Below are positions 4,823-35,075 of a stretch of DNA of 64,000 bases, one piece after another (position 1 is the stretch's first letter; each line of letters opens with the position of its first letter). The notes under the pieces were generated by a model. The model searched no databases, was not told the origin of the DNA, and saw only the letters and a list, made by a program, of their open reading frames with translations. Source of the DNA: Candidatus Omnitrophota bacterium (GTDB taxonomy: Bacteria > Omnitrophota > Gorgyraeia > Gygaellales > Profunditerraquicolaceae); contig VGKG01000003.1 in NCBI GenBank assembly GCA_016867115.1, positions 64,673 through 128,672 of the forward strand, written 5' to 3'. The translations under genes were made by a program, and so were the position numbers.

Positions 4823-6094
4823 ATGGATTACAAATACATTGTTTTAGGTATTTTTATCCTCTGTTACATCCTGTTCATCATTTTACCCCGCAGGCGCACT
4901 TACATCGCCGTGGCCGGAGCGCTTTTATTGGTCCTCATCCGGGCCCTTTCGCTAAAAGACGCATTCTTAGCCATCAACTGGAATGTCATGGGCATCTTTG
5001 TCGGCACACTTGTGGTGGCCGACATCTTCATGGAGAGCCGGGTCCCTGCCTACATCGCCGAGATCATCGTGGATAAAGCCAGAAATACCTGCTGGGCGAT
5101 CCTCTTCATCTGCCTGATGACCGGCCTTATTTCAGCCTTTGTGGAGAATGTGGCTACTGTCCTGATCGTAGCCCCCATCGCCCTATCTTTGGCCAGAAAA
5201 TTAGAGATCAACCCCACCAAAATGATGATTGCAATTGCGGTATCCAGCAACTTACAGGGTACCGCCACCCTGATCGGAGACCCGCCGAGCATGCTTTTGG
5301 GCGGTTTTGCCAGGATGAACTTCATGGATTTTTTCTTTTATAAAGGAAAGCCGAGCATCTTCTTTGCCGTGGAGTTAGGCGCCCTGGTCTCGCTGGTCGT
5401 GCTTTACTTTATCTTCCGGGACCAGCGTACGAAAGTGGAACTTGTGCCGGCAGAAAAGGTGCGCTCCTGGGTGCCGGCCATTATCCTTGCCTCTTTGATC
5501 TTGCTATTGGCGGTAACCTCATTTTTTGATACCGGCTTTACTTATATGGCAGGCGTACTCTGCATGATCGCCGCAGCTGTCTCCATGTTCTGGGAGAAAT
5601 TCGTGAACCGTTCTTCTATTCTCGGCGGCCTGAAGTCCCTGGACTGGGAGACGACCTTTTTCCTCATGGGCGTATTCATCCTTGTAGGCAGCCTCACTCT
5701 CACCGGCTGGATCGATATTATCTCTGATTTCCTGTCCAATCTCGTAGGCAGGAATATCTTTTTGGGTTATACCCTGATCGTCTGGATCGCGGTATTTTTT
5801 TCCGCATTTGTCGATAATGTGCCGTTTTTAGCCGCGATGCTTCCCGTGGCTGTCTCGATGTGCGCCAAGATCGATCAGGCGCCGTCTTTATTTCTTTTTG
5901 GCCTCCTGGTCGGCAGCAGCCTCGGAGGGAATATCACGCCTATCGGCGCCTCGGCCAATATCGTCGCCTGCGGGATACTGAAAAAAGAAGGGCATGAAGT
6001 GAAGTTTTTTGACTTTGTAAAAATAGGCCTCCCCTTTACGCTGGCAGCGGTGACTGCCGCATATCTGTTCATCTGGTTCATCTGGGGAGGATAA
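4823..6094 (+). CDS. Ion-transporter superfamily permease (ArsB/NhaD/CitMHS-like)
   Basis: 423 aa with 10-12 predicted TM helices, an internal repeat and GTATLIGDPP / GGNITPIGASANIV motifs. Confidence 0.55.
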   Translation: MDYKYIVLGIFILCYILFIILPRRRTYIAVAGALLLVLIRALSLKDAFLAINWNVMGIFVGTLVVADIFMESRVPAYIAEIIVDKARNTCWAILFICLMTGLISAFVENVATVLIVAPIALSLARKLEINPTKMMIAIAVSSNLQGTATLIGDPPSMLLGGFARMNFMDFFFYKGKPSIFFAVELGALVSLVVLYFIFRDQRTKVELVPAEKVRSWVPAIILASLILLLAVTSFFDTGFTYMAGVLCMIAAAVSMFWEKFVNRSSILGGLKSLDWETTFFLMGVFILVGSLTLTGWIDIISDFLSNLVGRNIFLGYTLIVWIAVFFSAFVDNVPFLAAMLPVAVSMCAKIDQAPSLFLFGLLVGSSLGGNITPIGASANIVACGILKKEGHEVKFFDFVKIGLPFTLAAVTAAYLFIWFIWGG

Positions 6095-7607: not shown

Positions 7608-8003
7608 ATGAAATTGATTACCCGCAATACCGACTATAGTCTAAGGGCGCTGATCTATATGGCGAAGAAGGGGGGGATAGTTTCGGTGCGTGAGCTTGAG
7701 CGCGCCTTAAAGATACCCCGGGCGTTTTTGAGAAAAATACTGCAGGCCCTGAACAAGAAGGGGATCCTCGCTTCCCAGAAAGGCCCGGGCGGGGGTTTCA
7801 GGCTGCTGGTCGCGCCGAAAGACCTGCGCCTTCTGGATGTGGCAAGCATCTTTCAGGGAAGGGTCAGGTTGAACGAATGCCTCTTTAAGAGAAAGGCCTG
7901 TCCCGATATCCGCAAGTGCCCCTTAAAAAGGGAGCTGGATAATATAGAAAGCTATGCGCTCAGGCGGCTGGGCGCGATATCCCTTGCCGCTCTCTTGAAG
8001 TAG
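7608..8003 (+). CDS. Rrf2-family transcriptional regulator (NsrR/IscR-like, Cys-liganded)
   Basis: N-terminal wHTH (YSLRALIYMA...VSVRELE) and C-x5-C-x5-C cluster (CLFKRKACPDIRKC). Confidence 0.8.
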   Translation: MKLITRNTDYSLRALIYMAKKGGIVSVRELERALKIPRAFLRKILQALNKKGILASQKGPGGGFRLLVAPKDLRLLDVASIFQGRVRLNECLFKRKACPDIRKCPLKRELDNIESYALRRLGAISLAALLK

Positions 8004-8014
8004 AAAGGAAAAGC

Positions 8015-8845
8015 ATGCCTAAAAGAAAGATCATCAAGATCGACGAAGAAAAATGCAACGGCTGCGGCCTCTGTATCCCCAACTGTCCGGAAGGCGCCAT
8101 CCAGGTCATAGACGGTAAGGCGCGCCTGATCAGCGATTTATTTTGTGACGGCCTGGGCGCCTGTATCGGCCATTGCCCGCAGGGCGCGATCGCCATCGAG
8201 GAGCGGGAGGCGGAAAAATACGATGAAAGGAAAGTGATGGAGAATATAGTCAGGCAGGGTGAGAATACAATCATTGCCCACCTTGCGCACCTGAAGGAAC
8301 ACGATGAAGAGGGGTATCTGAAGGAGGCTATGCAATTCTTAAAAGAGAAACATCTCGATATCCCGCTTGAGAGCGGACCTGCTCACCATGTCCACGGACA
8401 TGCCGGATGCCCCGGAGCTAAAATCACGGAGTTTAAGAAAAGGGCCGGGTCAGGGCATGCTCCGGCAGGGCATCAGGAATCAGGGCTTGAGCAGTGGCCG
8501 ATACAGCTTGCGCTTGTGCCGGCATTCGCGCCTTTTTTGAATGATGCTGACCTGCTGATTGCCGCAGACTGCGTGCCTTTTGCTTATGCCTCTTTCCACC
8601 GGGACTTATTAAGAGGAAAGGTTTTGCTGGTGGGCTGTCCTAAGTTCGACGATACGCAACTCTATAGCCAGAAATTAACCCAGATGTTCCAGAATAACCG
8701 CATCAAGTCGGTGACTTACGCGCATATGGAGGTGCCCTGTTGTTCCGGCCTGACACCGCTTATTCAATCAGCCATAACAGCTTCGGGAAAGGAGATCCCT
8801 TTCCGTGAAACGGTGATCAGTATTAAGGGGGAGAGGTCGGAATGA
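8015..8845 (+). CDS. Di-cluster 4Fe-4S ferredoxin-domain protein with a C-terminal Cys/His-rich domain (Hcp-associated)
   Basis: CNGCGLCIPNCP and CDGLGACIGHCP motifs; C-terminal HVHGHAGCPG and PCCSG. Confidence 0.6.
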   Translation: MPKRKIIKIDEEKCNGCGLCIPNCPEGAIQVIDGKARLISDLFCDGLGACIGHCPQGAIAIEEREAEKYDERKVMENIVRQGENTIIAHLAHLKEHDEEGYLKEAMQFLKEKHLDIPLESGPAHHVHGHAGCPGAKITEFKKRAGSGHAPAGHQESGLEQWPIQLALVPAFAPFLNDADLLIAADCVPFAYASFHRDLLRGKVLLVGCPKFDDTQLYSQKLTQMFQNNRIKSVTYAHMEVPCCSGLTPLIQSAITASGKEIPFRETVISIKGERSE

Positions 8846-9069
8846 TCCGGAAGTGCCCGGGACAGGATGACCGTAAAATCAACGCCGAAGAGATCAGGTG
8901 CCCTGATTGCGGTTACGAGGCGGAGATCTTCTCGGATGAATTAAAGGTAAAATGCCCCGGATGCAAAGGCCTTATCTGCAGGGCGTTATTGCCGTCCTGC
9001 ATTGACTGGTGTAAACACGCCCGGGAGTGCCTGGGCGGGGTAAGATGGAGGAAGATAAGAGGGAGGTAA
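8842..9069 (+). CDS. Small zinc-ribbon/Cys-rich protein
   Basis: CPDCG...CPGCKG double CxxC; ATGA overlap with the upstream gene. Confidence 0.35.
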   Translation: MIRKCPGQDDRKINAEEIRCPDCGYEAEIFSDELKVKCPGCKGLICRALLPSCIDWCKHARECLGGVRWRKIRGR

Positions 9070-9071
9070 AA

Positions 9072-10361
9072 ATGTTCTGTTACCAGTGCGAACAAACATC
9101 GGGGGGAAGCGGCTGTACAAAAATCGGAGTCTGCGGTAAGAATGAGGATATCCAGAGCCTGCAGGATACTCTTCTGTTTGGCCTCAAGGGTATTGCCGCT
9201 TATGCGTATCATGCCCGCGAATTAGGCAGCCGCGACGAAGAGGTAGACGCCTTCATGCATGAAGCGCTCTTTAAGACCCTGACCAATGTCAATTTCAGCC
9301 TGCAGGACTATCTGGAGGCGGTCTTAAAATGCGGGGGGATGAATCTAAAAATAATGGAAGTTCTGGATCAGGCGCATACCAAAAGATTCGGCAATCCTGT
9401 CCCGGCCGAGGTAGATACCGGGACAAAGGCCGGGCCCGGGATACTGGTGACCGGGCATGACCTGCTTGACCTTTATGAGTTATTGAGGCAGACCGAAGGC
9501 ACGGGAGTAAATGTCTATACGCACGGCGAGATGCTTCCGGCGCATGGTTACCCGGAACTAAGGAAGTTCAGGCATTTGGCCGGTAATTACGGCGGCGCCT
9601 GGCAGGAGCAGCGCAAGGAATTTAAAGATTTTTCCGGCGCGATCCTGGTGACCACTAACTGCGTGATGATCCCGCCGCAGGACTCTTATCTTGACCGCCT
9701 TTTCACCACCGGACTTCCCGGGGTAGAGGGCGCGATACAAGCGAAAAAGAGGGACTTTAAGGCTTTGGTCGAGAAGGCAAAGTCCCTTGCGCCTTTTCCG
9801 GAGGCGCCGGGTAAAAAAATCATGACCGGATTCCACCACACGGTGATACTCAGCCTGGCGGATAAGATCATTGCCGCAGTCAAAGCCGGAAAGATCCGGC
9901 ATTTCTTCCTGATCGGCGGCTGCGACGGGGCAAAGCCGGGGCGCAACTACTACACTGAGTTTGCCGAGAAGGTGCCCAAGGACTGCATAATCCTCACCCT
10001 TGCCTGCGGTAAATACCGCTTTAACAAACTTGATTTCGGCGCAATTGACGGGATACCGAGGCTTCTTGACGTCGGGCAGTGCAATAATGCCTATTCTGCC
10101 ATCCAGGTCGCTTTAGGGTTAGCCAAGGCCTTTAACTGCGGGGTGAATGACCTGCCGTTATCCCTTGTCCTCTCCTGGTATGAGCAGAAGGCGGTAGCGA
10201 TACTGCTTACCCTACTGCATCTAGGGATAAAGAACATGCGTTTGGGGCCTACCCCTCCTGCGTTCCTGACCCCCAATGTCTTTAAGGCGCTTCAGGAGAA
10301 GTTCAACCTTAAACTGATCACTACGCCGGATGAGGATTTAAAGGAGATTTTAAAGAAATAG
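9072..10361 (+). CDS. hcp: Hybrid-cluster protein (hydroxylamine reductase Hcp), short class
   Basis: Canonical N-terminus MFCYQCEQT...GCTKIGVCGK, GGCDGAK and CGK motifs; start set at ATG 9072, which has a GGGAGG RBS. Confidence 0.8.
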   Translation: MFCYQCEQTSGGSGCTKIGVCGKNEDIQSLQDTLLFGLKGIAAYAYHARELGSRDEEVDAFMHEALFKTLTNVNFSLQDYLEAVLKCGGMNLKIMEVLDQAHTKRFGNPVPAEVDTGTKAGPGILVTGHDLLDLYELLRQTEGTGVNVYTHGEMLPAHGYPELRKFRHLAGNYGGAWQEQRKEFKDFSGAILVTTNCVMIPPQDSYLDRLFTTGLPGVEGAIQAKKRDFKALVEKAKSLAPFPEAPGKKIMTGFHHTVILSLADKIIAAVKAGKIRHFFLIGGCDGAKPGRNYYTEFAEKVPKDCIILTLACGKYRFNKLDFGAIDGIPRLLDVGQCNNAYSAIQVALGLAKAFNCGVNDLPLSLVLSWYEQKAVAILLTLLHLGIKNMRLGPTPPAFLTPNVFKALQEKFNLKLITTPDEDLKEILKK

Positions 10362-10572: not shown

Positions 10573-10968
10573 ATGTCAGAGTTCAAAGATCTTTTACAGA
10601 GCGCGGACTGGAAAACGGAGAAGCATGTCCCGGTGATCGAGGCGCCGGCCAAAACAAAGAAAGGAGAAATGCTTAAAGTCGCCTTAAGCGTGGGCAGGGA
10701 GATCGCCCATCCGAATACCACCGAGCACCACATCCGCTGGATCACGCTGTACTTCCTTCCCGACGGAGAGAAGTTTCCCTGCCAGGTCGCCAGGTTTGAG
10801 TTTACCAGCCACGGCGAATCTGTGCAGGGGCCCAACACCAGCACAATATTCACCCACCCTGAGGTTACGGCCAGTTTGAAGACTGAGAAGAGCGGACAGC
10901 TTCTGGCTGCTTCATATTGCAATATCCACGGCCTCTGGCAAAACTCGGTAAAAATAACCGTAGAGTAA
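10573..10968 (+). CDS. sor: Superoxide reductase (1Fe-SOR, neelaredoxin)
   Basis: Near-colinear with P. furiosus SOR: EKHVPVIE, HPNTTEHHIRWI, YCNIHGLW Fe ligands. Confidence 0.9.
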   Translation: MSEFKDLLQSADWKTEKHVPVIEAPAKTKKGEMLKVALSVGREIAHPNTTEHHIRWITLYFLPDGEKFPCQVARFEFTSHGESVQGPNTSTIFTHPEVTASLKTEKSGQLLAASYCNIHGLWQNSVKITVE

Positions 10969-22971: not shown

Positions 22972-23001
22972 TTGATATACCCCCAGGGGGTATGTTATAA
23001 T
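22972..23001 (+). promoter_or_regulatory. Promoter with CsoR-type operator ATACCCCCAGGGGGTAT placed between the -35 and -10 elements
   Basis: TTGATA at 22972-22977, 17-bp perfect GC-core palindrome at 22977-22993, TATAAT at 22996-23001; matches the known CsoR operator architecture. Confidence 0.7.
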
Positions 23002-23020
23002 TATTGTACAGAGGTGATGA

Positions 23021-23302
23021 GTGGCTAAGTATCCGGATCATACAGATAATTTAGTATCTCTAAGAAGGATAGAAGGGCAAGTCCGCGGCATTCAGAAGAT
23101 GATTGAGAATAAAGGATATTGCGTAGATATACTTAATCAGATACACGCGGTTATTTATGCCCTCGCCAGAATCGAGGATAAAATTCTCCAGAAGCATTTT
23201 GAGGGATGTGTAGCCGAAGCTGTCCGCGGCGGTTCGGCAAATGATAAAAGAAAAAAGCTGGAAGAGATACTTCGGCTAATCCATCAATTCAGGAAGGTCT
23301 AA
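23021..23302 (+). CDS. csoR: CsoR/RcnR-family metal-sensing repressor (Cu-type C-H-C ligand set)
   Basis: GQVRGIQKMIE...GYCVDILNQIHAV...HFEGC pattern; GTG start with AGAGGTGA RBS. Confidence 0.75.
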   Translation: MAKYPDHTDNLVSLRRIEGQVRGIQKMIENKGYCVDILNQIHAVIYALARIEDKILQKHFEGCVAEAVRGGSANDKRKKLEEILRLIHQFRKV

Positions 23303-23314
23303 AAGGAGGTACAC

Positions 23315-23503
23315 ATGAAAAAATCTCTTATTTCTTTGTTTATCGCCACACTCTTACTTAATGCCGGATTGTCTTTGGCAGCCGCAGGCTCTTGCTGCGC
23401 AAAAGACAAGTGCGCAACTGCCAAAGGTACATGCTGCATAAAAGGAGATTGTAAGAGTTCCGATAAGAGTTGTTGTAGTAATGGACAGTGTAAATGTCCG
23501 TAG
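23315..23503 (+). CDS. Secreted Cys-rich mini-protein (13 Cys in a mature peptide of about 38 aa), candidate periplasmic copper-binding peptide
   Basis: Signal peptide MKKSLISLFIATLLLNAGLSLAAAG followed by CCAKDKCATAKGTCCIKGDCKSSDKSCCSNGQCKCP; AAGGAGG RBS; 12 nt downstream of csoR. Confidence 0.55.
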   Translation: MKKSLISLFIATLLLNAGLSLAAAGSCCAKDKCATAKGTCCIKGDCKSSDKSCCSNGQCKCP

Positions 23504-23529
23504 GATCTTAGCAGGAAAATAGGTCAATC

Positions 23530-23690
23530 ATAGGCGGGGAGGTCGTAATACGGCCTGAGAGTCTCCGTTTAGACGGGGTTACCCGATGAACCTGAACTGG
23601 ATAATGCCAGCGGAGGGAAGGAGCGTGATGGATAATAGACCCGATGCATCTGGCAAAGGGTCTTTTTATTTCTGCGGGCAGCCAGAAAAC
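23530..23690 (+). promoter_or_regulatory. TPP riboswitch (THI element) with terminator-type expression platform
   Basis: CUGAGA ... ACCUGA ... GGAUAAUGCCAGCG ... AGGGAA THI-box hallmarks at 23557-23618; GACCC/GGGTC hairpin plus TTTTTATTT at 23640-23672; GGAGGG RBS before the Thi4 ATG. Confidence 0.75.
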
Positions 23691-23704: not shown

Positions 23705-24517
23705 ATGTTTAGCAAAATAACGGAAGCACAGATCAGCAGGGCGATCGTAGGAGAGTTTACCAGGTGGTTTGATGATTATATTACTTCCGATGTCATCATC
23801 GTCGGCGCCGGGCCCAGCGGCCTTATGGCAGGGCGCGACCTGGCTAATGCAGGGATCAAGACCCTGATCATCGAAAGCAACAATTATATCGGCGGAGGTT
23901 TTTGGGTCGGCGGTTATTTCATGAATACCCTGACCTTCAGGTCTCCGGCAGAGGATATCCTGGATGAACTGAAGATACCTCATAAGAGGATAGAAGACGG
24001 GTTGTCTGTCGCGGACGGCCCTTCTGCCTGCTCAAAGCTCATCTCCGCCACATGCGATTCAGGGGCAAAGATCCTGAACCTCACTAAGTTCGATGACGTG
24101 GTCCTGCGCAATCAGCGGGTTGAGGGGGCGGTGGTCAACTGGGCCCCGGTCTCGGCGTTACCCCGGCAGATCACCTGCGTAGACCCGATCGCCCTGGAAG
24201 CAAAGGTAGTGGTTGATGCTACAGGCCATGATGCCTGGGTAGCCCGGAGCCTCGAGAAGAGAGGGTTATTGAAATTGCAAAGTTTCGGCCCTATGGATGT
24301 CGTGCTTTCAGAAGGGCTGGTGGTAGAAAAGAGCGGTGAGATCTTCCCGGGGCTCTTTGCTATCGGTATGGCAGTATCTTCTGTCTACGGGATACCGCGC
24401 ATGGGGCCTACTTTTGCCGGGATGCTTTTTTCAGGAAGAAAAGCTGCTCAGGAAATAATCAAGCTATTCTCCTGCACAGGGAGCTCTACTTGTAAAGAGC
24501 CTGCCGCAGTAGTCTAA
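23705..24517 (+). CDS. thi4: Thiazole synthase Thi4 family, second paralogue, riboswitch-controlled
   Basis: IIVGAGPSGL, GGGFWVGG, VVDATGHDAWV and PRMGPTFAGMLFSG motifs. Confidence 0.85.
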   Translation: MFSKITEAQISRAIVGEFTRWFDDYITSDVIIVGAGPSGLMAGRDLANAGIKTLIIESNNYIGGGFWVGGYFMNTLTFRSPAEDILDELKIPHKRIEDGLSVADGPSACSKLISATCDSGAKILNLTKFDDVVLRNQRVEGAVVNWAPVSALPRQITCVDPIALEAKVVVDATGHDAWVARSLEKRGLLKLQSFGPMDVVLSEGLVVEKSGEIFPGLFAIGMAVSSVYGIPRMGPTFAGMLFSGRKAAQEIIKLFSCTGSSTCKEPAAVV

Positions 24518-24548: not shown

Positions 24549-24595
24549 TTGACAAATCTTATTTCTATAGTAAACTCTACTTTGTTAATAGAGTT
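24549..24595 (+). promoter_or_regulatory. Promoter (TTGACA) with inverted repeat AACTCTA-N8-TAGAGTT over the -10/start-site region; candidate Rrf2 autoregulatory operator
   Basis: TTGACA at 24549-24554; 7-bp arms at 24574-24580 and 24589-24595. Confidence 0.45.
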
Positions 24596-24617
24596 AATAG
24601 ACAAAAGGAAAAGCAAA

Positions 24618-25052
24618 ATGAGAATTACCTATCGGGGCGATTACGCTTTAAAGGCAGTTCTGGATCTGGCGTTGCATCAGGGGACTTTAGTGACGACGCA
24701 TGATTTAGCCAGGCGCACAGACGCTCCCCTTAAATTCTTGGAACAGGTTTTACTGGATTTAAAGAGGGGCGGTTTTGTAGAGAGCCGGCGGGGTAAGGTC
24801 GGCGGTTATCTTCTGGCAAGAGATCCTTCGCAGGTCAGATTAGGCGAGGTCATCAGGTTCATTGACGGCCCTATTGAGCCGATTGAATGCGTAGATAAAA
24901 AATACGACGGCTGCCGCGACTTGTATAAGTGCATCTTTAGAGGCATATGGCAGGAAGTGGCGGAGTCGACCTCCAGAATCATAGATAACATCACTTTTAA
25001 AGATCTGGCAGAAAGGGTGAAGAGGGGCCAGGGTCTGGTCTATTCGATTTAG
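24618..25052 (+). CDS. Rrf2-family regulator (CymR/IscR-like) heading the sulfur-assimilation operon
   Basis: YALKAVLDLA...VTTHDLARR wHTH; C-x6-C-x5-C (CVDKKYDGCRDLYKC); trimmed to ATG 24618. Confidence 0.75.
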   Translation: MRITYRGDYALKAVLDLALHQGTLVTTHDLARRTDAPLKFLEQVLLDLKRGGFVESRRGKVGGYLLARDPSQVRLGEVIRFIDGPIEPIECVDKKYDGCRDLYKCIFRGIWQEVAESTSRIIDNITFKDLAERVKRGQGLVYSI

Positions 25053-25070
25053 GAAGGAGATCATGAATAA

Positions 25071-25994
25071 ATGCCAAAAATTGCCAAAGACATTACGGCA
25101 CTGATTGGTAATACTCCTTTGGTCTACATAAACAGGCTATCTCAAGGCTGCGGGGCCAGGGTGGCGGCGAAGTTAGAATTATTCAACCCCTGCTCTTCGG
25201 TTAAAGACAGGATAGGCCTGAGTATGATCGAACAGGCAGAGAGGGAAGGCAAGATAAAGCCGGATACGGTCATTGTCGAGCCGACTTCGGGCAATACCGG
25301 TATAGCCCTGGCTTTTGTCGCTGCTGTCAGAGGGTATAAACTGGTCTTGATTATGCCGGAGACGATGAGCCTTGAACGCAGAAAATTATTGGCCGCCTTT
25401 GGCGCAGAGATTATCCTTACTTCCGGCAGTGAGGGGATGAGCGGCGCGGTAAAAAAAGCGGAAGAGCTGGTAAAGAGCAATAAGCACTATTTTATGCCGC
25501 AGCAGTTTAAGAATCCGGCTAACCCCGAGATTCACCGTCGGACTACTGCCTTAGAGATCTGGGAGGATACCGAAGGCAAGATAGATATTTTAGTTGCAGG
25601 CGTCGGGACCGGTGGTACAATTACAGGTATAGCCGAAGTGATCAGGGAAAAGAAGCCTTCATTTCGCGCGATTGCGGTCGAACCGGAGGAATCACCGGTT
25701 CTCTCCGGCGGAAAGCCCGGGCCGCACAAGATCCAGGGCATCGGCGCAGGTTTTGTGCCAGATGTCCTGAACCGGGAGATAATTGATGAGATCATCCAGG
25801 TCTCTAATGACGATGCCGCTGCCACCGCCCGCAGGCTGGTAAAAGAAGAGGGGATCCTTGCCGGGATCTCTTCCGGGGCAGCTGTCTTTGCCGCCCTGAA
25901 AGTCGGCCGGAGAAGCGAGAATAAGGATAAGCTGATTGTGGTCATCCTGCCCGATACCGGCGAGCGCTACTTAAGTACAGGGCTTTTTGTTTAA
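25071..25994 (+). CDS. cysK: Cysteine synthase A (O-acetylserine sulfhydrylase)
   Basis: IGNTPLV, SVKDR (PLP Lys), [10 protein letters not shown] and GTGGT motifs. Confidence 0.85.
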
Positions 25995-26012
25995 CCCTAA
26001 GGAGGAATAATC

Positions 26013-26234
26013 ATGAGAGAAAAAGTCGAGAAGGCGATAGAAAAGGTGCGGCCCATGCTTCAGGCAGACGGAGGGGATGTTGAGCTCATCGATGTGACCT
26101 CAGAAGGAGTTGTGAAGCTGAAATTACAGGGAAGCTGTGGCTGCTGCCCGATGAGCCAGATCACCCTTAAGACGGCAATAGAGAAGATCATCAAGCAGGA
26201 AGTCCCCGAAATAAAAGAGGTCATCGCGATTTAA
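26013..26234 (+). CDS. NifU-like (Nfu) Fe-S cluster scaffold domain protein
   Basis: 73 aa, GSCGCCPMS CxxC motif. Confidence 0.7.
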   Translation: MREKVEKAIEKVRPMLQADGGDVELIDVTSEGVVKLKLQGSCGCCPMSQITLKTAIEKIIKQEVPEIKEVIAI

Positions 26235-26252
26235 GGAGAGCGAGTCAGAGAG

Positions 26253-27458
26253 ATGAGAACGATAAAAGAGATAAACGCAAAGATCAAAAAGGGCGACGTC
26301 GTAGTCGTCACCGCGGAAGAAGTCATAGATCTGGTGGCTAAAAAGGGCGTAAAAAAGGCGGCCCAGGAAGTGGATGTGGTCACCACCGGTACCTTTGGCC
26401 CGATGTGTTCATCCGGCGCCTATTTTAATATCGGACATTCAAAACCGAGGATTAAACTCGGCGGCGGGACCTGCACATTAAACGGAGTCCCGGTTTATAC
26501 CGGTTTTGCGGCCGTGGATATATACCTCGGCGCAACCGCGCTTGCGGATGATGACCCGCGCAATAAGATCTATCCGGGAGAGTTCAAATACGGCGGAGGT
26601 CATGTGATCCAGGAGCTGGTCGCGGGAAAGAACGCGCACCTTGAGGCGAGCGCCTACGGCACGGATTGCTATCCGCGTAAGAAACTTTCCACCCATATTA
26701 ATATCAAGGATATTAACGAAGCAGTCCTCTTTAATATCCGCAATTGTTACCAGAATTATAATATTGCGGTGAACCTTTCGGATAAGCCGATCTATACTTA
26801 CATGGGTATGCTTAAGCCGAATCTCGGTAATGCCAATTACTGTTCTGCGGGACAGCTCTCGCCGCTCTTGAAAGACCCCTACTATAAGACCATAGGCGTA
26901 GGGACAAAGATATTCCTGGGCGGCGGCATCGGCTATGTCTCCTGGCACGGCACCCAGCACAACCCGTCGGTGAAACGCAAGGAGAATGGTATCCCGCAGG
27001 CTCCGGCCGGGACCCTGGCGGTCATCGGCGACCTGAAACAGATGAAACCGGAGTGGTTGGTGGGGGTGAGCATGCTTGGTTATGGCGTAACGCTGAATGT
27101 AGGGATAGGTGTACCCATACCGATACTTGATGAAGAGATACTTAAATACACGGCTGCCAGGGACGAAGAGATCTACGCGCAGGTAGTGGATTACAGCGAG
27201 GCGTATCCTCAGGCGGTACCGGGCAGCTTAGCAGAGGCAAATTATGCCCAGTTAAAATCCGGAAAGATCACGGTAAAGGGAAAGGAAATCCCTACCGGAA
27301 ATCTCTCCAGTTACTCCAAGGCGGTGGAGATCGCCGAGCAGTTAAAGGCATGGATCAAGAAGGGGGATTTTACCCTGACAGAGGCGGTGGCGGCATTGCC
27401 GGGTGTAGAGTCAGGGTATACCTTTAAGCCTTTAAAAGAGAGCCCGTCAATCAGCTAG
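26253..27458 (+). CDS. DUF39 / COG1900 homocysteine-biosynthesis protein (MA1821-type sulfide-incorporating enzyme)
   Basis: 401 aa; typical size and architecture; directly followed by an NIL-domain ferredoxin, as in the methanogen MA1821-MA1822 pair. Confidence 0.65.
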   Translation: MRTIKEINAKIKKGDVVVVTAEEVIDLVAKKGVKKAAQEVDVVTTGTFGPMCSSGAYFNIGHSKPRIKLGGGTCTLNGVPVYTGFAAVDIYLGATALADDDPRNKIYPGEFKYGGGHVIQELVAGKNAHLEASAYGTDCYPRKKLSTHINIKDINEAVLFNIRNCYQNYNIAVNLSDKPIYTYMGMLKPNLGNANYCSAGQLSPLLKDPYYKTIGVGTKIFLGGGIGYVSWHGTQHNPSVKRKENGIPQAPAGTLAVIGDLKQMKPEWLVGVSMLGYGVTLNVGIGVPIPILDEEILKYTAARDEEIYAQVVDYSEAYPQAVPGSLAEANYAQLKSGKITVKGKEIPTGNLSSYSKAVEIAEQLKAWIKKGDFTLTEAVAALPGVESGYTFKPLKESPSIS

Positions 27459-27477
27459 GCAGCGGGAGGAAAAGAAT

Positions 27478-27885
27478 ATGGTTTCCAAAAAGATAGTCTT
27501 GCATTTTCCGTCAAAGCTGGTGGATCAGCCCATCGTTTATAAACTGGTCAAAGATTTTGACCTGCAGTTTAATATTCTGAAGGCCTCGGTTACCTCGGGG
27601 GAAGAGGGCCTGATGGTCCTGGAATTGACCGGCAAAAAAGAGAACTTTGATCAGGGCATCGAATATCTTAAGTCCTGCGGGGTAAAGATCCAGCCTTTAA
27701 GCAAGGACGTGGTGCGCGATGAAGTCAAATGCACGCATTGCGGAGTCTGTATCCCGATCTGTCCTACGGGTGCGCTGATCGTCGACCCTAAGACGCGTAA
27801 AGTAATCTTCCATAACGATAAATGCATCGCCTGCGAACTCTGTGTTCCCATCTGCCCGCCGCGCGCCATGGAAGTGAAGTTCTAG
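27478..27885 (+). CDS. NIL-domain plus 2x[4Fe-4S] ferredoxin (MA1822-type partner of DUF39)
   Basis: N-terminal NIL domain; CTHCGVCIPICP and CIACELCVPICP motifs. Confidence 0.7.
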   Translation: MVSKKIVLHFPSKLVDQPIVYKLVKDFDLQFNILKASVTSGEEGLMVLELTGKKENFDQGIEYLKSCGVKIQPLSKDVVRDEVKCTHCGVCIPICPTGALIVDPKTRKVIFHNDKCIACELCVPICPPRAMEVKF

Positions 27886-27893
27886 TATTGCAC

Positions 27894-28691
27894 GTGGATA
27901 AATTACCCAGACTTAAAAATATAATCAGGCGTTATGGCTCCTGCGTCATCGCTTTTTCCGGCGGCGTAGACAGCACGTTACTTTTAAAAGTGGCTTCCCT
28001 GGTGTTACCTAAAGATAAAATCCTTGCAGTTACTGCCACCTCTGCTACATACCCAAAAGAAGAATTATTTTTTTCTAAAACCCAGGCTAAGGAGATCGGC
28101 GTAAGGCATAAGATCATCGCGACTGCGGAAGTTAAAGATAAAAGATTTACTTCCAACCCCCTTGACCGTTGTTATATATGCAAAAAAGAGCTTTTTAATA
28201 AGCTGAAGATTATCGCGAGGAATTTTAGATACGATTTTGTACTCGATGCCACCAATGCCTCTGATAAGGCAGATTTTCGCCCCGGAAATAAGGCGCTTCA
28301 GGAATTAAAAATACGCTCACCGCTTAAGGAGGCAGGTTTGTCTAAGGATGATATCCGCGCGCTAAGTAGGCGATTTGGTTTGGTTACCTGGGATAAACCG
28401 AGTTTGGCTTGCCTGGCCTCTCGCATTCCTTACGGCACAAAAATTACGCCGTCTTTACTTAGCCGCATTAACCAGGCAGAGGAATATTTAAGAAGTTTTG
28501 GTTTCAAACAGGCGAGATTGCGGCATTATAACAACCTCTGCCGGATTGAGGTTTTGAAAAGGGATATCCCGCGGCTTCTTGCCCGGCGCAATCAGATAGT
28601 CGACAAGCTAAAAAGTTTGGGTTATAATTATGTTACTGTGGACCTTGAAGGATACCGTACCGGCAGCATGAATGAGGTGATCGGTCGATGA
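27894..28691 (+). CDS. PP-loop ATP pyrophosphatase, LarE-like/TIGR00268 family, candidate sulfur transferase
   Basis: SGGVDS PP-loop; conserved CYICK Cys; GTG start chosen at 27894 with low certainty. Confidence 0.6.
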   Translation: MDKLPRLKNIIRRYGSCVIAFSGGVDSTLLLKVASLVLPKDKILAVTATSATYPKEELFFSKTQAKEIGVRHKIIATAEVKDKRFTSNPLDRCYICKKELFNKLKIIARNFRYDFVLDATNASDKADFRPGNKALQELKIRSPLKEAGLSKDDIRALSRRFGLVTWDKPSLACLASRIPYGTKITPSLLSRINQAEEYLRSFGFKQARLRHYNNLCRIEVLKRDIPRLLARRNQIVDKLKSLGYNYVTVDLEGYRTGSMNEVIGR

Positions 28692-29857
28692 GGAAAGCCT
28701 ATTTAGACTACGCAGCTACTACTCCTTGCGATCCCGAAGTGCTTGAGGCGATGAAGCCGTATTTTTTTGAAAAGTTCGGCAATGCCTCCAGTATCTATTC
28801 TCTAGGACAGGAAGCGAAGAAGGCTATTGAGGATAGCCGCGAGAAGCTCGCCGCATTTTTAGGCGCAAGGCCTGATGAGATCGTCTTTACTTCAGGCGGG
28901 ACAGAATCCGATAATTTCGCCATTAAAGGCATAACCTATGCCCTTAAGCAAAAAGGTGACCACATTGTTACTAGTGCCATCGAGCACCATGCTGTCAGCG
29001 AGCCGGCTAAATTCCTGGAGAAGCAGGGATTTAAGGTCACTTATGTCGGCGTAGACAGCCAGGGGCTGGTCTCTCCTGATGACATAAAGCGCGCGATCAC
29101 CGATAAGACCATCCTCATCAGCGTAATGCATGCCAATAACGAGATCGGTACTATTCAACCGATTGCCGAGATCGGCAGGATTGCTAAAGAAAAAGGGGTC
29201 TGTTTTCATACTGATGCCGTGCAGACAGTCGGCCACATTCCGGTGAATGTGGATGAGCTGAATGTCGATCTTCTATCACTCTCTGCGCATAAATTTTACG
29301 GGCCCAAGGGTGCCGGCGCCCTTTATATCCGTAAGGGTACGCGTATTGAATCGTTCCTGCATGGCGGAGACCAGGAGAGGGACAGGCGTGCATCTACCTA
29401 TAATACTCCGGGGATCGTAGGCCTGGGCAAAGCAATAGAATTATGCTCAAAGACTATGCCGGAAGAAGCCAAGTTTCAGACCGCCCTGCGTGACCGTCTG
29501 ATCAAGGCGCTGGTGGAAAAGATCCCTGAGGTCCGGCTTAACGGAGACCCGCTTAAGCGGCTCCCTAATAATATAAATATTTCTATCCGATACATTGAGG
29601 GCGAATCCATGCTTCTGAGCCTGGATATGGCGGGAATCGCCTGTTCTACCGGCTCAGCCTGTACCTCTACTTCTTTAGAGCCGTCGCATGTGCTCCTGGC
29701 GATCGGCCTGCCGCATGAGATCGCTCATGGATCGCTACGCATTACTTTCGGCAGATGGACGAAAGAAGAGGATGCCGAGTATCTCTTAGAAAGCCTTCCC
29801 AAGATCGTTTCGAAACTGCGCGCCATGTCGCCCCTTTACGATAAAAATAGGTTGTAG
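28688..29857 (+). CDS. nifS: Cysteine desulfurase (NifS/IscS)
   Basis: YLDYAATTP, SAHKFYGPKG (PLP Lys) and CSTGSAC motifs. Confidence 0.85.
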   Translation: MRKAYLDYAATTPCDPEVLEAMKPYFFEKFGNASSIYSLGQEAKKAIEDSREKLAAFLGARPDEIVFTSGGTESDNFAIKGITYALKQKGDHIVTSAIEHHAVSEPAKFLEKQGFKVTYVGVDSQGLVSPDDIKRAITDKTILISVMHANNEIGTIQPIAEIGRIAKEKGVCFHTDAVQTVGHIPVNVDELNVDLLSLSAHKFYGPKGAGALYIRKGTRIESFLHGGDQERDRRASTYNTPGIVGLGKAIELCSKTMPEEAKFQTALRDRLIKALVEKIPEVRLNGDPLKRLPNNINISIRYIEGESMLLSLDMAGIACSTGSACTSTSLEPSHVLLAIGLPHEIAHGSLRITFGRWTKEEDAEYLLESLPKIVSKLRAMSPLYDKNRL

Positions 29858-29888: not shown

Positions 29889-30845
29889 ATGCAGGAACGC
29901 ATACTCGATTTTTTAAAGAGAAAACAAGGCTATGTTTCCGGCGATACTATTGCCAGCCGGCTTGGCATTACCCGTCAGGGGCTCTGGAAACACATCCAGG
30001 AGCTCAAAGAATTAGGGTATGACATCGTCGCTGTGCCGCACCTGGGGTATCGGCTTGAATCTTTACCTGACAGGCTCTTTCCTTTTGAGGTCAGCCACAA
30101 CCTGAATACTAAGTTCGTCGGTAAAAGAGCCCATTATTTCGATACCGCAACCAGCACCATGGAGATCGCCATGGACCTGGGCCTGAAGGGTGCTCCTGCG
30201 GGTTCGGTCGTCATCGCAGAATCTCAGACTAAGGGCAAGGGAAGGCTTGGCCGCATCTGGTTTAGCCCCAAATACAAAGGAATATATCTTTCGCTGATAC
30301 TTAGGCCCACCCTCCTTCCGAGCGAGGCCTCTATTTTTACCTTGTTGTCGGCTGTAAGTATCTGCGAGGCGCTTAAAAACTTTGCCGCAATAGATGCCCA
30401 GATCAAATGGCCCAACGATATATTTTTGGGCCAGAAAAAATTAGGCGGCATCCTCACCGAACTGAACGCCGAGACGGATAAGATCAATTTCATCGTCATC
30501 GGCATCGGCCTGAATGTGAACAACGATAAGAAATCCCTGATCAGCGGCTCAACTTCCCTGAAGGAGCACAAAAAAGAAAGCGTAGACAGGGCCGGGTTGC
30601 TCAAGGAGGTCTTGCGCCGGATAGAGGCGAATTATTTTCTTCTGGAGAAGAAGGGTTCAGGGGTGATCCTGGATAAATGGCGCGAGCATAATCTGACACT
30701 CGGCAGGAGGGTCAAGGTCTACTGCCAGAAGAAACATCTTGAGGGGGAGGCCTTGGGCCTGGATCGCGACGGCGGGCTTCTGGTCAGAAACGACGGCGGC
30801 CTGATCGAGAAGGTCCTGGCCGGCGATGTGGTGCACTGCAGGTAA
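29889..30845 (+). CDS. birA: Bifunctional biotin-protein ligase / biotin operon repressor BirA
   Basis: N-terminal HTH (VSGDTIASRLGITRQGLWKHI) and BPL domain GKGRLGRIW. Confidence 0.8.
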   Translation: MQERILDFLKRKQGYVSGDTIASRLGITRQGLWKHIQELKELGYDIVAVPHLGYRLESLPDRLFPFEVSHNLNTKFVGKRAHYFDTATSTMEIAMDLGLKGAPAGSVVIAESQTKGKGRLGRIWFSPKYKGIYLSLILRPTLLPSEASIFTLLSAVSICEALKNFAAIDAQIKWPNDIFLGQKKLGGILTELNAETDKINFIVIGIGLNVNNDKKSLISGSTSLKEHKKESVDRAGLLKEVLRRIEANYFLLEKKGSGVILDKWREHNLTLGRRVKVYCQKKHLEGEALGLDRDGGLLVRNDGGLIEKVLAGDVVHCR

Positions 30846-33080: not shown

Positions 33081-34151
33081 ATGAAAAAAGAGCGCGTAGT
33101 CGTAGCCATGAGCGGTGGGGTGGATTCTTCGGTAGCCGCCGCCCTTTTACAGAAAGAGGGCTATGAGGCGATCGGGATGACCATGTGCTTCAATCTTGCA
33201 GATACCGGGCGCAGGAAATCTGGCTGCTGCGGCCTGCAAGGCATAGAGGATGCCCGTCGCGTCGCCCATAAATTAGGCATCAGGCACTACGTCATCAATA
33301 TGCAGAAGCCCCTGAGAGATTTTATCATCAAGGATTTCTGCAAAGAATACCTGAGGGGCAGGACCCCGAATCCCTGCGTGCGCTGCAATCAGTTTTTAAA
33401 GTTCGACATCCTCTTAAAAAAAGCGCTTGAACTGGATGCCCGATATTTGGCTACCGGGCATTATGTCAGGAAGATCAGAACACCCCGCGGTTTTAAGTTA
33501 AAAAAGGCCAAGGACCCGGATAAAGACCAGTCGTATTTTCTCTACCGTCTTAATCAGTATCAACTAAGGCACGCGCTCTTTCCACTCGGCGATTATACTA
33601 AGACTGAGGTGAGGGAGCTGGCCCGTAAATTCGGCCTGGCAGTGGCTGAAAAGCCGGGGAGCCAGGAGATCTGCTTTCTGCCTGATAGCGATTACCGCGG
33701 GTTTCTAAAAAACCGGGTTAAAAAAAAGCTGCAGCCGGGTCCGATCGTAGACAAGGATGGCGATCTTTTAGGCAGGCACAGGGGAGTCGCGTTTTACACT
33801 GTCGGCCAGCGTGAAGGGCTAGGTTTAGCCCTGGGTTATCCGGCTTATATCAGCCGGATCGACGCAGCTAAGAATCAAATCGTAGTCGGCAGAAGAGAAG
33901 AGGCGATGGAAAAGGCATTTCTCGTCAGCCAGCTGAACCTTATTTCCGCACCCCACAAAAAGAAGGTTGCGGCCCGGGTGCGGATAAGGTATAATCACAA
34001 AGAGGCTCCCGCAGATATATTTTTTTGGGGCAGGAGAGCCAAAGTTATTTTCAGGGAGCCGCAGTTTGCCGTTACCCCGGGACAATCCGCGGTATTTTAC
34101 CGCCGGGGCACAGTCCTTGGCGGCGGCGCGATCGAGGAGGTCTTAGATTAG
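33081..34151 (+). CDS. mnmA: tRNA-specific 2-thiouridylase MnmA
   Basis: VVAMSGGVDSSV PP-loop; catalytic Cys motifs. Confidence 0.85.
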   Translation: MKKERVVVAMSGGVDSSVAAALLQKEGYEAIGMTMCFNLADTGRRKSGCCGLQGIEDARRVAHKLGIRHYVINMQKPLRDFIIKDFCKEYLRGRTPNPCVRCNQFLKFDILLKKALELDARYLATGHYVRKIRTPRGFKLKKAKDPDKDQSYFLYRLNQYQLRHALFPLGDYTKTEVRELARKFGLAVAEKPGSQEICFLPDSDYRGFLKNRVKKKLQPGPIVDKDGDLLGRHRGVAFYTVGQREGLGLALGYPAYISRIDAAKNQIVVGRREEAMEKAFLVSQLNLISAPHKKKVAARVRIRYNHKEAPADIFFWGRRAKVIFREPQFAVTPGQSAVFYRRGTVLGGGAIEEVLD

Positions 34152-35075
34152 ATGACTAAGAAAGAAGCCACAGGACTGGAAGATAAAATCCTAGAGCTGA
34201 AGAAGAAGCGTAATGCCGTAATCCTGGTGCACAATTACCAGCTTCCTGAGGTTCAGGATATCGCGGACTACCGGGGTGATTCTCTGGAGCTGAGCCGTAT
34301 CGCGGCCAAGACCGATGCCAAGGTGATCGTCTTCTGCGGGGTGCATTTCATGGCTGAGACCGCATCAATATTATGCCCGGAAAAGAAAGTGATCATGCCG
34401 GATATGCATTCCGGCTGCCCCATGGCCGATATGATCACCGCCCAGGACTTGAGAAGATTGAAAAAAGAGCACCCTAAGGCGGTGACGGTCGGTTACGTGA
34501 ATACTTCAGCGGAAGTAAAGGCAGAACTGGATTACTGCTGTACCTCGACTAACGCGGTGAAGGTAGTGAATTACCTGAAAGATAAGTTTGAGGAAATCGT
34601 TTTTGTGCCGGATAAGTACCTGGCGGATTATGTCTCCAAAGAGACACATAAAAAGCTCATCTTCTGGAACGGATTCTGTCCTACCCACGTAAAGATCCTG
34701 CCCGATGATATCAAGCGGGAGAAGAAATTTCATCCTTTTGCCAAGGTGATGGTGCACCCGGAGTGCCTTCCGGCAGTGGTAGCCATGGCAGATGCCGCGC
34801 TATCGACCAGTCAGATGTGCAAGTTTGCGCATGAATCCGAGGCCAAGGAGTTCATCGTGGGAACAGAGGTCGGATTGATCTATCGCCTCAAAAAAGATAA
34901 TCCCGCCAAGGAGTTTTACCCTGCCTCGGAAGCGGCAGTCTGCCCGAATATGAAACGGACTACCCAGGAAAAGGTGCTCTGGGCGCTGGAAGAGCTCAAA
35001 GAAGAGGTCAGGGTCGCGGATGAGGTGCGCCAGCGCGCGCGCCTGGCTATTGACCGGATGCTGGAAATCGTATAG
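34152..35075 (+). CDS. nadA: Quinolinate synthase NadA
   Basis: ILVHNYQ, VHFMAET, 307 aa. Confidence 0.85.
   Translation: MTKKEATGLEDKILELKKKRNAVILVHNYQLPEVQDIADYRGDSLELSRIAAKTDAKVIVFCGVHFMAETASILCPEKKVIMPDMHSGCPMADMITAQDLRRLKKEHPKAVTVGYVNTSAEVKAELDYCCTSTNAVKVVNYLKDKFEEIVFVPDKYLADYVSKETHKKLIFWNGFCPTHVKILPDDIKREKKFHPFAKVMVHPECLPAVVAMADAALSTSQMCKFAHESEAKEFIVGTEVGLIYRLKKDNPAKEFYPASEAAVCPNMKRTTQEKVLWALEELKEEVRVADEVRQRARLAIDRMLEIV

Follow-up and report, generated by a model that had tools for sequence, protein, structure and literature searches.

In a 64,000-nucleotide (nt) stretch of contig VGKG01000003.1 from a Candidatus Omnitrophota genome (assembly GCA_016867115.1, forward-strand positions 64,673 to 128,672; referred to below as the window and numbered from its first base), we found a compact cluster of sulfur-related genes that probably forms one sigma-70-driven, autoregulated unit, rrf2-cysK-nfu-DUF39-NIL/Fd-larE-nifS-(birA). 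An IscR-like regulator of the Rrf2 family would act on a 29-nt box at its promoter, and the encoded enzymes would be parallel consumers and suppliers of sulfur. The region appears best filed as a well-conserved, IscR-like autoregulated sulfur operon that carries a known gene pair for L-aspartate semialdehyde sulfurtransferase (hereafter L-ASST), and for which a candidate operator is newly defined. The pathway, its occurrence in bacteria and neighbourhoods of this kind are already published or annotated, and the parts were known before. Gene identities were assigned by Pfam and NCBIfam hidden Markov model (HMM) scans, with curated cutoffs where given. The comparison set consisted of 80 genomic loci that encode relatives of the DUF39 protein (L numbers below); synteny was counted in the 43 Omnitrophota-type loci with enough flanking sequence, and cysteine conservation in the set of orthologs of each protein.

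All long open reading frames (ORFs) between 24.5 and 30.9 kb lie on the plus strand (Table 1). The HMM scans bore out the seven gene identities and the gene order that the initial annotation of this DNA had given, namely Rrf2, CysK, Nfu, DUF39, NIL-ferredoxin, LarE and NifS, after which birA follows. The intergenic gaps from rrf2 to nifS measure, in order, 18, 18, 18, 19 and about 2 nt, and the nifS start overlaps the larE stop by 4 nt. No terminator-like site was found in any gap from rrf2 to birA, and we infer that these genes are co-transcribed. The cluster had been drawn as ending with nifS (24549-29857); birA is probably the last gene of the unit, because it lies only 31 nt 3' of nifS, is not separated from it by a terminator-like site, and stands 3' of the cluster in 27 of the 43 Omnitrophota loci. 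In these relatives, birA follows the NIL-ferredoxin/LarE/NifS end of the cluster also where larE and nifS are absent. Two start codons were revised. The TTG at 24549, previously taken as the start of the Rrf2 ORF, opens the -35 hexamer TTGACA, and the coding sequence starts at ATG 24618, because the HMM match sets in only at residue 24 of the longer ORF and a protein of 144 residues was called independently on an identical contig. For LarE, a long form starting at ATG 27822 was rejected; the most likely start is TTG 27888, which is preferred by the independent gene call and lies three bases past the stop codon of the NIL-ferredoxin gene.

Table 1. Predicted features of the sulfur operon and its surroundings; positions refer to the window unless a locus is named.
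Feature	Position	Strand	Evidence
TPP (thiamine pyrophosphate) riboswitch	23525..23635	+	RF00059 59.9 bits vs gathering score 54.3
Thi4-family thiazole synthase, Cys at catalytic position ('ITCVDP')	23705..24517	+	PF01946 210 bits; TIGR00292 229 bits
Sigma-70-type promoter	24549..24576	+	-35 TTGACA 24549-24554, 16-nt spacer, -10 TAAACT 24571-24576; promoter scan
Putative Rrf2 operator, 29-nt box ACTCTACTTTGTTAATAGAGTTAATAGAC	24574..24602	+	Family conservation and weight matrix
Rrf2-family regulator, 144 aa, IscR-like	24618..25052	+	PF02082 121.4 bits; TIGR00738 111.9 bits vs cutoff 73.3
cysK, O-acetylserine sulfhydrylase A	25071..25994	+	TIGR01139 483.6 bits vs cutoff 350.95
nfu, 73-aa NifU C-terminal-domain Fe-S carrier, CxxC	26013..26234	+	PF01106 97.9 bits
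DUF39/HcyBio (COG1900) subunit of L-ASST, CBS-less bacterial form, 401 aa	26253..27458	+	PF01837
NIL domain + 2x[4Fe-4S] ferredoxin, MA1822-type	27478..27885	+	PF09383 63.9 bits; Fer4 models
LarE-family PP-loop ATP-dependent sulfur insertase, [4Fe-4S] type, 267 aa	27888..28691	+	TIGR00268 318.7 bits vs cutoff 150
nifS, class-V PLP (pyridoxal phosphate) cysteine desulfurase	28688..29857	+	TIGR03402 591.2 bits vs cutoff 530.75
birA, bifunctional biotin ligase/repressor, N-terminal HTH (helix-turn-helix)	29889..30845	+	TIGR00121 216 bits; HTH_11
COG2122/UPF0280 (in relatives)	L039 9645-10361; L086 8001-8723; L087 8001-8723; Dehalococcoidia L047-L080		After NIL-ferredoxin

Upstream of rrf2, the 29-nt box covers part of the -10 hexamer of the sigma-70-type promoter as well as its predicted transcription start. 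An operator of the form AACTCTA-N8-TAGAGTT had been proposed here; the inverted repeat and its position at the promoter hold, but the true spacing is N9 and the repeat is part of a longer box with three half-sites, while the N8 pattern has no match in the window even with two mismatches allowed. The core palindrome AACTCTA-N9-TAGAGTT occupies 24573-24595, starting inside the -10 hexamer, and is followed by a third, direct half-site, TAGAC. In the family consensus ACTCTACTAATATGATAGAGATTATAGAG, which reads CTCTA-N9-TAGAG-N4-TAGAG, the third half-site is TAGAG and lies four bases past the second. Taken alone, the 7-bp palindrome is weakly improbable (84 of 100 shuffles hold a match at three mismatches), and its significance derives from the comparative data, that is, from the conserved box upstream of orthologous Rrf2 genes. 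In about 30 Omnitrophota loci, box and promoter are conserved 5' of the Rrf2 ortholog although the flanking intergenic DNA is unalignable, and TTGACA-N16/17-TATACT is kept at this place in more than 20 loci.

A weight matrix built from the box and scanned over 1.1 Mb of loci revealed one box per locus, 31-60 nt upstream of the start of the cluster's Rrf2 gene. Every hit of at least 17 bits lies upstream of that gene, and three hits elsewhere score 14.5-16.4 bits. The box was also found in loci outside the training set, with Rrf2 proteins of about 35% identity (L015, L022, L025, L026, L070 and L086). When left out of the training, the window site scores 27.4 bits, compared with a maximum of 13.9 in 20 shuffled windows; no other hit of at least 12 bits was found in the window, be it before nfu-DUF39, before Thi4 or elsewhere. 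We conclude that the conserved box is a candidate DNA operator; its overlap with the -10 hexamer and with the transcription start puts it in the usual position of a repressor site. Its conservation, together with that of the promoter, upstream of rrf2 itself supports autoregulation. An RNA element was considered as well and rejected: the leader folds weakly (-3.1 kcal/mol, z = -1.5), changes among orthologs produce mismatches and not compensatory pairs, and there is no match in Rfam. In one Omnitrophota subclade (L017 and L021, near 4841-4870), the box scores best on the opposite strand, where it reads as a near-perfect 9-bp palindrome, TACTATTCC-N4-GGAATAGTA, which suggests that the ancestral Rrf2 site was a symmetric operator longer than the core in the window.

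The Rrf2 protein contains three cysteines, C91, C99 and C105 (C-x7-C-x5-C), that are kept in 39-40 of 41 orthologs, and Fe-S sensing is therefore plausible. Its nearest solved structures are Thermincola potens IscR (Protein Data Bank (PDB) entry 4cic), E. coli IscR and then CymR (2y75). It falls below the equivalog cutoffs of both families, with 90.7 bits against 207.55 for IscR (TIGR02010) and 83.2 bits against 195 for CymR (NF047409), and would be best called an IscR-like member of a distinct, uncharacterised Rrf2 subfamily. Comparative genomics lends good support to control of the promoter by a single Rrf2 protein. The initial annotation had placed the entire cluster under one Fe-S-sensing Rrf2 regulator; the three conserved cysteines and the conserved box at the promoter agree with this proposal, and the tie is firm only for rrf2-cysK. 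A second, unrelated Rrf2 regulator heads another cluster in the window (7608-8003, 8015-8845, 9027-10361 and 10573-10968) that includes a ferredoxin-like Fe-S protein, a hybrid-cluster protein (Prismane) and desulfoferrodoxin. This cluster resembles an NsrR-type nitrosative/oxidative stress unit, and its counterpart in L020 and L023 sits upstream of DUF39.

At the centre of the operon lies the gene pair of L-ASST. The PF01837 search, on which the DUF39 call had been staked, matched over the full profile (positions 1-349 of 349; 516.8 bits, E 3e-155). The next gene, which starts 19 nt past DUF39, encodes a NIL domain followed by two 4Fe-4S motifs, and the two proteins match the architecture of MA1821-MA1822, as proposed. 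Sequence comparisons revealed that all eight cluster cysteines of the NIL-ferredoxin are invariant in 59 of 59 orthologs, as are C52 and C139 of the DUF39 protein in 81 of 81. These two residues lie near Cys54 and Cys131 of MA1821 by position only, without a direct alignment to that protein, in which Cys54 is essential and both cysteines are near-universal (PMC12068725). The DUF39 protein matches PF01837 only and contains no CBS domain; since Desulfovibrio Dde_3007 likewise has none (PMC4045070), it can be assigned to the bacterial form. With the Dehalococcoides mccartyi ortholog of DET0921, a protein placed in the homocysteine/methionine pathway by Kuehl et al. and Price et al. (PMC4045070, PMC5764234), it shares 74% identity. 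A Candidatus Omnitrophica metagenome-assembled genome encodes a protein 100% identical to it, and more than 100 clusters, mostly from Omnitrophota, are 81-97% identical to it; many of these relatives are named "homocysteine biosynthesis protein" by NCBI and some "L-aspartate semialdehyde sulfurtransferase" by JGI. No solved structure was found for DUF39. [quoted passage not shown] In M. acetivorans, it is not the sole route to homocysteine (PMC12068725).

The remaining proteins are linked to the synthesis or mobilization of cysteine sulfur and to Fe-S clusters. CysK and NifS score above their curated cutoffs, and in Nfu C42 and C45 are invariant (38/38 orthologs). LarE has the SGGxDS PP-loop motif in the form 'SGGVDS'. 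Its alignment to PDB entries 5udq and 8cnz revealed that the sequence C-Y-I-C replaces the L. plantarum W-Y-Y-A and that a third cysteine is present. The resulting CxxC...C triad, which all 22 of 22 orthologs share without change, corresponds to C92/C95/C172 of T. maritima LarE as well as 8cnz, so that the protein carries the signature of the [4Fe-4S]-dependent catalytic type instead of being the sacrificial-sulfur-type ATPase of the initial annotation. T. maritima LarE is [4Fe-4S]-dependent and catalytic and takes its sulfur from a cysteine desulfurase (PMC9283937), which makes the overlap of larE with nifS sensible. Alignment to 5udq further showed that the window protein conserves S180, R212 and R214 (L. 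plantarum LarE numbering), which bind the phosphate of P2CMN, the nickel-pincer precursor (PMC9283937). The simplest reading, and the most likely one, is that it would act as an ordinary LarE in nickel-pincer cofactor synthesis.

The full gene order from Rrf2 to BirA is present in six species-level genomes (L001, L003, L009, L010, L013 and L046), and partial versions of it are found on many truncated contigs. Upstream, Rrf2 is directly followed by cysK (a few variants have metY or a Thi4 gene in its place) in 31 of the 43 Omnitrophota loci, and Nfu is adjacent in 27. LarE is present in 17 loci, NifS in 20 and both in 13. The cysK|nfu junction is a hot spot for insertions, all of them above NCBIfam cutoffs: it holds thiM-thiE in L017, L021, L029 and L038, and metX-metW in L015 and L024, where metY adjoins Rrf2 or cysK. 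In the latter two loci, the stretch between Rrf2/cysK and nfu-DUF39 contains the canonical direct-sulfhydrylation genes metY, metX and metW and a thiM or DUF169 gene (L015 747-5558, L024 2968-7786), which brings both homocysteine routes together. This sharing of one cluster ties the DUF39 pair to methionine synthesis, and it also means that DUF39 is not necessarily the only homocysteine route in the phylum. A search confined to the 64-kb window with the relatives' homologs (tblastn) found no metX, metY, metW or cysE. A SAM (S-adenosylmethionine) or other riboswitch before DUF39 or the met genes was also sought with Rfam at gathering thresholds and found neither in the window nor in the split loci L015, L017, L024 and L029. 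Taken together, the cluster is a mosaic of sulfur-related modules and no single fixed pathway, and the earlier description of a "unified module" is set aside, given that relatives drop larE and/or nifS or insert thiM/thiE or metX/metW/metY. Omnitrophota should be credited with a DUF39 homocysteine route, sometimes beside MetX/MetY, in annotation and in the prediction of auxotrophies.

On this basis, the following mode of action can be proposed. The IscR-like Rrf2 protein, probably with an Fe-S cluster on its three cysteines, would bind the CTCTA-N9-TAGAG-N4-TAGAG box and, from its position over the -10 hexamer and the transcription start, block RNA polymerase, so that expression of the operon would track Fe-S or sulfur status. 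The operon would bring together consumers and suppliers of reduced sulfur that work in parallel and not in one linear pathway. CysK would convert sulfide and O-acetylserine to cysteine, and the DUF39 protein with its NIL-ferredoxin would make homocysteine from aspartate semialdehyde and reduced sulfur, with electrons passing via the two [4Fe-4S] clusters. NifS would release persulfide sulfur from cysteine, and Nfu would deliver Fe-S clusters. Finally, the [4Fe-4S]-type LarE would use NifS-derived sulfur for ATP-dependent thiocarboxylation, most likely in nickel-pincer cofactor synthesis.

Several observations weigh against this proposal. A strong promoter-like site, TCGACA-N17-TATAAT (11 of 12 matches), lies at 28600-28628, within the 3' end of larE and a short way upstream of nifS, and may drive nifS-birA separately. 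The Rrf2 protein stays below the equivalog cutoffs of both IscR and CymR, which makes any signal that it would respond to hypothetical. The weight matrix detected no second box before nfu-DUF39 in the split loci, by which the regulator appears firmly tied to rrf2-cysK only. Furthermore, larE and nifS are missing from many relatives; no larA, larB or larC came to light where the window is annotated (about 0-37 kb and 41-47 kb); and the tblastn search of the 64-kb window found no COG2122, a component that D. vulgaris requires.

Some of these points would be accommodated if Rrf2 were a regulator of cysteine metabolism whose true regulon is only rrf2-cysK, with the downstream genes as inherited neighbours that have signals of their own. 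Rrf2-cysK is indeed the most conserved pair of the cluster, the box always lies 5' of Rrf2 and never before nfu or DUF39 in the split loci, the site inside larE could be one such signal, and the CymR model scores nearly as high (83 bits) as the IscR model (91 bits). However, the window's gaps of 18-19 nt are too short to hold promoters before nfu, DUF39 and the NIL-ferredoxin gene, and the inserted thiM/thiE and metX/metW genes are on the same strand and tightly packed, which makes read-through from the Rrf2 promoter likely. The three conserved cysteines also set the protein apart from the cluster-less CymR of B. subtilis. We give this restricted regulon only a slim chance. It is highly improbable that the DUF39/NIL-ferredoxin pair makes another thiol, for example a coenzyme-M-like or other aldehyde-derived one, as other COG1900 subfamilies do. 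COG1900 does include MMP16/ComF, L-ASST may have overlapping roles (PMC12068725), and the homocysteine activity of the window pair is itself a prediction from sequence; but the score of the DUF39 protein for the MMP16 model TIGR03287 is far below cutoff (121.7 vs 363.95 bits), the protein has no inserted ferredoxin domain, the NIL-ferredoxin partner and both conserved cysteines are present, relatives cluster the pair with metX/metW/metY, and the 74% identical Dehalococcoides ortholog has been assigned to methionine synthesis.

A further alternative concerns the source of the homocysteine sulfur. In all 15 Dehalococcoidia loci, and likewise in L043, a locus labelled Deltaproteobacteria, the NIL-ferredoxin gene is followed by one for a 240-250-aa protein (NF003323, 315-323 bits) that is named UPF0280 or ApbE superfamily by NCBI and JGI and corresponds to COG2122 (PF27030). 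COG2122 follows the NIL-ferredoxin gene in one of the 43 Omnitrophota loci and is absent within +/-8 kb from the other 42. The Omnitrophota loci that have it beside DUF39-NIL/Fd (L039, L086 and L087) lack nfu, larE, nifS and birA there. Among all loci with DUF39 and NIL-ferredoxin and sufficient flanks, Nfu/LarE/NifS occur in 28 and COG2122 in 17, no locus combining the two and no locus being without either; this split follows phylogeny almost perfectly (Omnitrophota versus Dehalococcoidia), and the counts are thus not independent events. The pattern would fit a coupled chain in which homocysteine sulfur comes from cysteine, passing from CysK to a NifS persulfide, possibly via Nfu/LarE, and on to a persulfide on Cys52 of DUF39, with Nfu, NifS and LarE in place of COG2122. 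The same can be said of the missing COG2122 in the window, and of the findings that MA1821 is persulfidated in vivo and that a part in forming persulfide has been suggested for COG2122 (quoted in PMC5764234). Against such a chain, almost the entire split is phylogenetic, COG2122 may be encoded at another place in the genome, just as the Desulfovibrio genes are unlinked (DvMF_1464, 0262, 0044), larE and nifS are each dispensable in many loci of the Nfu/LarE/NifS type, and the conserved residues of LarE for binding the nickel-pincer precursor speak for its ordinary role. We regard the chain as unlikely. A still more specific version, according to which NifS and Nfu, perhaps with the [4Fe-4S] LarE-like ATPase, replace COG2122 and feed homocysteine synthesis from CysK-made cysteine under a new IscR-like Rrf2 that has a 29-nt operator to itself, is quite unlikely. 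The either/or pattern is a lead on how sulfur or Fe-S clusters reach L-ASST. L043 contains the order Rrf2-CysK-DUF39-NIL/Fd-COG2122-CysE-PP-loop ATPase-NadA.

We thus prefer the single autoregulated operon of parallel sulfur enzymes. It exemplifies how an uncultured, largely anaerobic phylum packs sulfide assimilation, Fe-S supply and sulfur-cofactor enzymes behind what is probably one promoter, and it provides an uncharacterised Rrf2 subfamily with a well-defined candidate operator. A description of the Rrf2 operator was not found in the literature searched, and Rrf2 does not appear in the text searched of a recent Thi4 survey (10.1101/2025.09.23.678117); the main Omnitrophota genomics paper mentions neither cysteine nor methionine. 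Likewise, the complementarity between COG2122 and Nfu/LarE/NifS was not found described in the literature searched, that preprint included.

The operon is flanked by further genes of sulfur and metal metabolism. Immediately upstream, a Thi4-family gene of the Cys (suicide) type has its own TPP riboswitch and is for this reason a separate neighbouring unit, with the riboswitch marking the 5' boundary of the Rrf2 operon. The genome has both kinds of thiazole synthase, as a second Thi4 gene at 599-1375 encodes the sulfide-dependent type with His ('LHVDP'). In Dehalococcoidia and some Omnitrophota, a Thi4-like gene adjoins DUF39; it was considered as a new paralog or as COG2122 and rejected as either, since it encodes a standard TIGR00292 thiazole synthase of the His type (327-338 bits). 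Further upstream, the region 22972-23503 contains a gene for a CsoR-family repressor (PF02583), preceded by a TTGATA-N18-TATAAT promoter. The spacer of this promoter holds a GC-rich palindrome, ATACCCCC-A-GGGGGTAT, that resembles a CsoR operator (22972-23001, 23021-23302, 23315-23503). After the CsoR gene comes an ORF of 62 aa, with a signal peptide and about 13 cysteines, that may encode a secreted metal-binding peptide. On the downstream side of the operon, a few genes away, lie mnmA (tRNA 2-thiouridylase, 33081-34151) and nadA (Fe-S quinolinate synthase, 34152-35075), whose products are clients of cysteine desulfurase or of Fe-S supply.

Among characterised systems, the window operon resembles E. 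coli iscRSUA and the IscR of T. potens in that a three-cysteine Rrf2 repressor is encoded first and has a likely autoregulatory operator that overlaps the promoter. Like IscR-led Fe-S operons, it contains a cysteine desulfurase and a NifU-domain protein. It differs from them in the sub-cutoff IscR score and the C-x7-C-x5-C spacing of its regulator, and in being dominated by genes for cysteine and homocysteine synthesis, without an IscU/SufBCD scaffold. The box sequence has no known relation to the type 1 and type 2 motifs of IscR. CymR of B. subtilis has no Fe-S cysteines or cluster, requires CysK as a co-repressor and is encoded in a cymR-yrvO(nifS-like)-mnmA operon, and its regulon is tied to cysteine metabolism. 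The window Rrf2 is similarly linked to cysK and cysteine metabolism and shares an operon with a cysteine desulfurase, and mnmA lies a few genes downstream here as well; its three cysteines and its score of 83 bits against the CymR cutoff of 195 set it apart.

For the enzymes, the closest counterparts are the following. In MA1821-MA1822 of Methanosarcina acetivorans (Rauch 2014; Allen 2015; PMC12068725), a two-cysteine COG1900/DUF39 protein and a NIL + 2x[4Fe-4S] ferredoxin form the same two-gene unit, whereas the window protein lacks the C-terminal, SAM-sensing CBS domain of the archaeal MA1821/MJ0100 form and its pair belongs to a bacterial operon that is headed by Rrf2 and also holds cysK, nfu, larE and nifS. 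The CBS-less DUF39 with a NIL/ferredoxin partner is shared with Desulfovibrio (Dde_3007; DvMF_1464, DvMF_0262 and the COG2122 gene DvMF_0044) and with Dehalococcoides DET0921-0919 (PMC4045070, PMC5764234). In Desulfovibrio, the three genes are scattered, whereas the window pair is adjacent and flanked by Nfu/LarE/NifS/BirA; in Dehalococcoidia, COG2122 follows the NIL-ferredoxin gene, whereas the window pair has no linked COG2122. LarE corresponds to the T. maritima enzyme (PMC9283937) and to PDB 8cnz in its SGGxDS motif, CxxC...C triad, precursor-phosphate residues and partnership with a cysteine desulfurase, and differs in that larA, larB and larC are not seen nearby and its substrate role is putative. 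Finally, a survey of suicide-Thi4 neighbourhoods in more than 400 genomes, including an Omnitrophica metagenome-assembled genome, names as genes that recur beside Thi4 CysK, NifS, NifU, LarE, HcyBio (L-ASST), MnmA and CysE (Oliveira-Filho et al., bioRxiv 10.1101/2025.09.23.678117). This survey is centred on Thi4, and regulator and operator do not figure in its text as searched, whereas the Thi4 gene of the window belongs to a separate TPP-riboswitch unit; the gene content of the window beside its Cys-type Thi4 fits the list of the survey.

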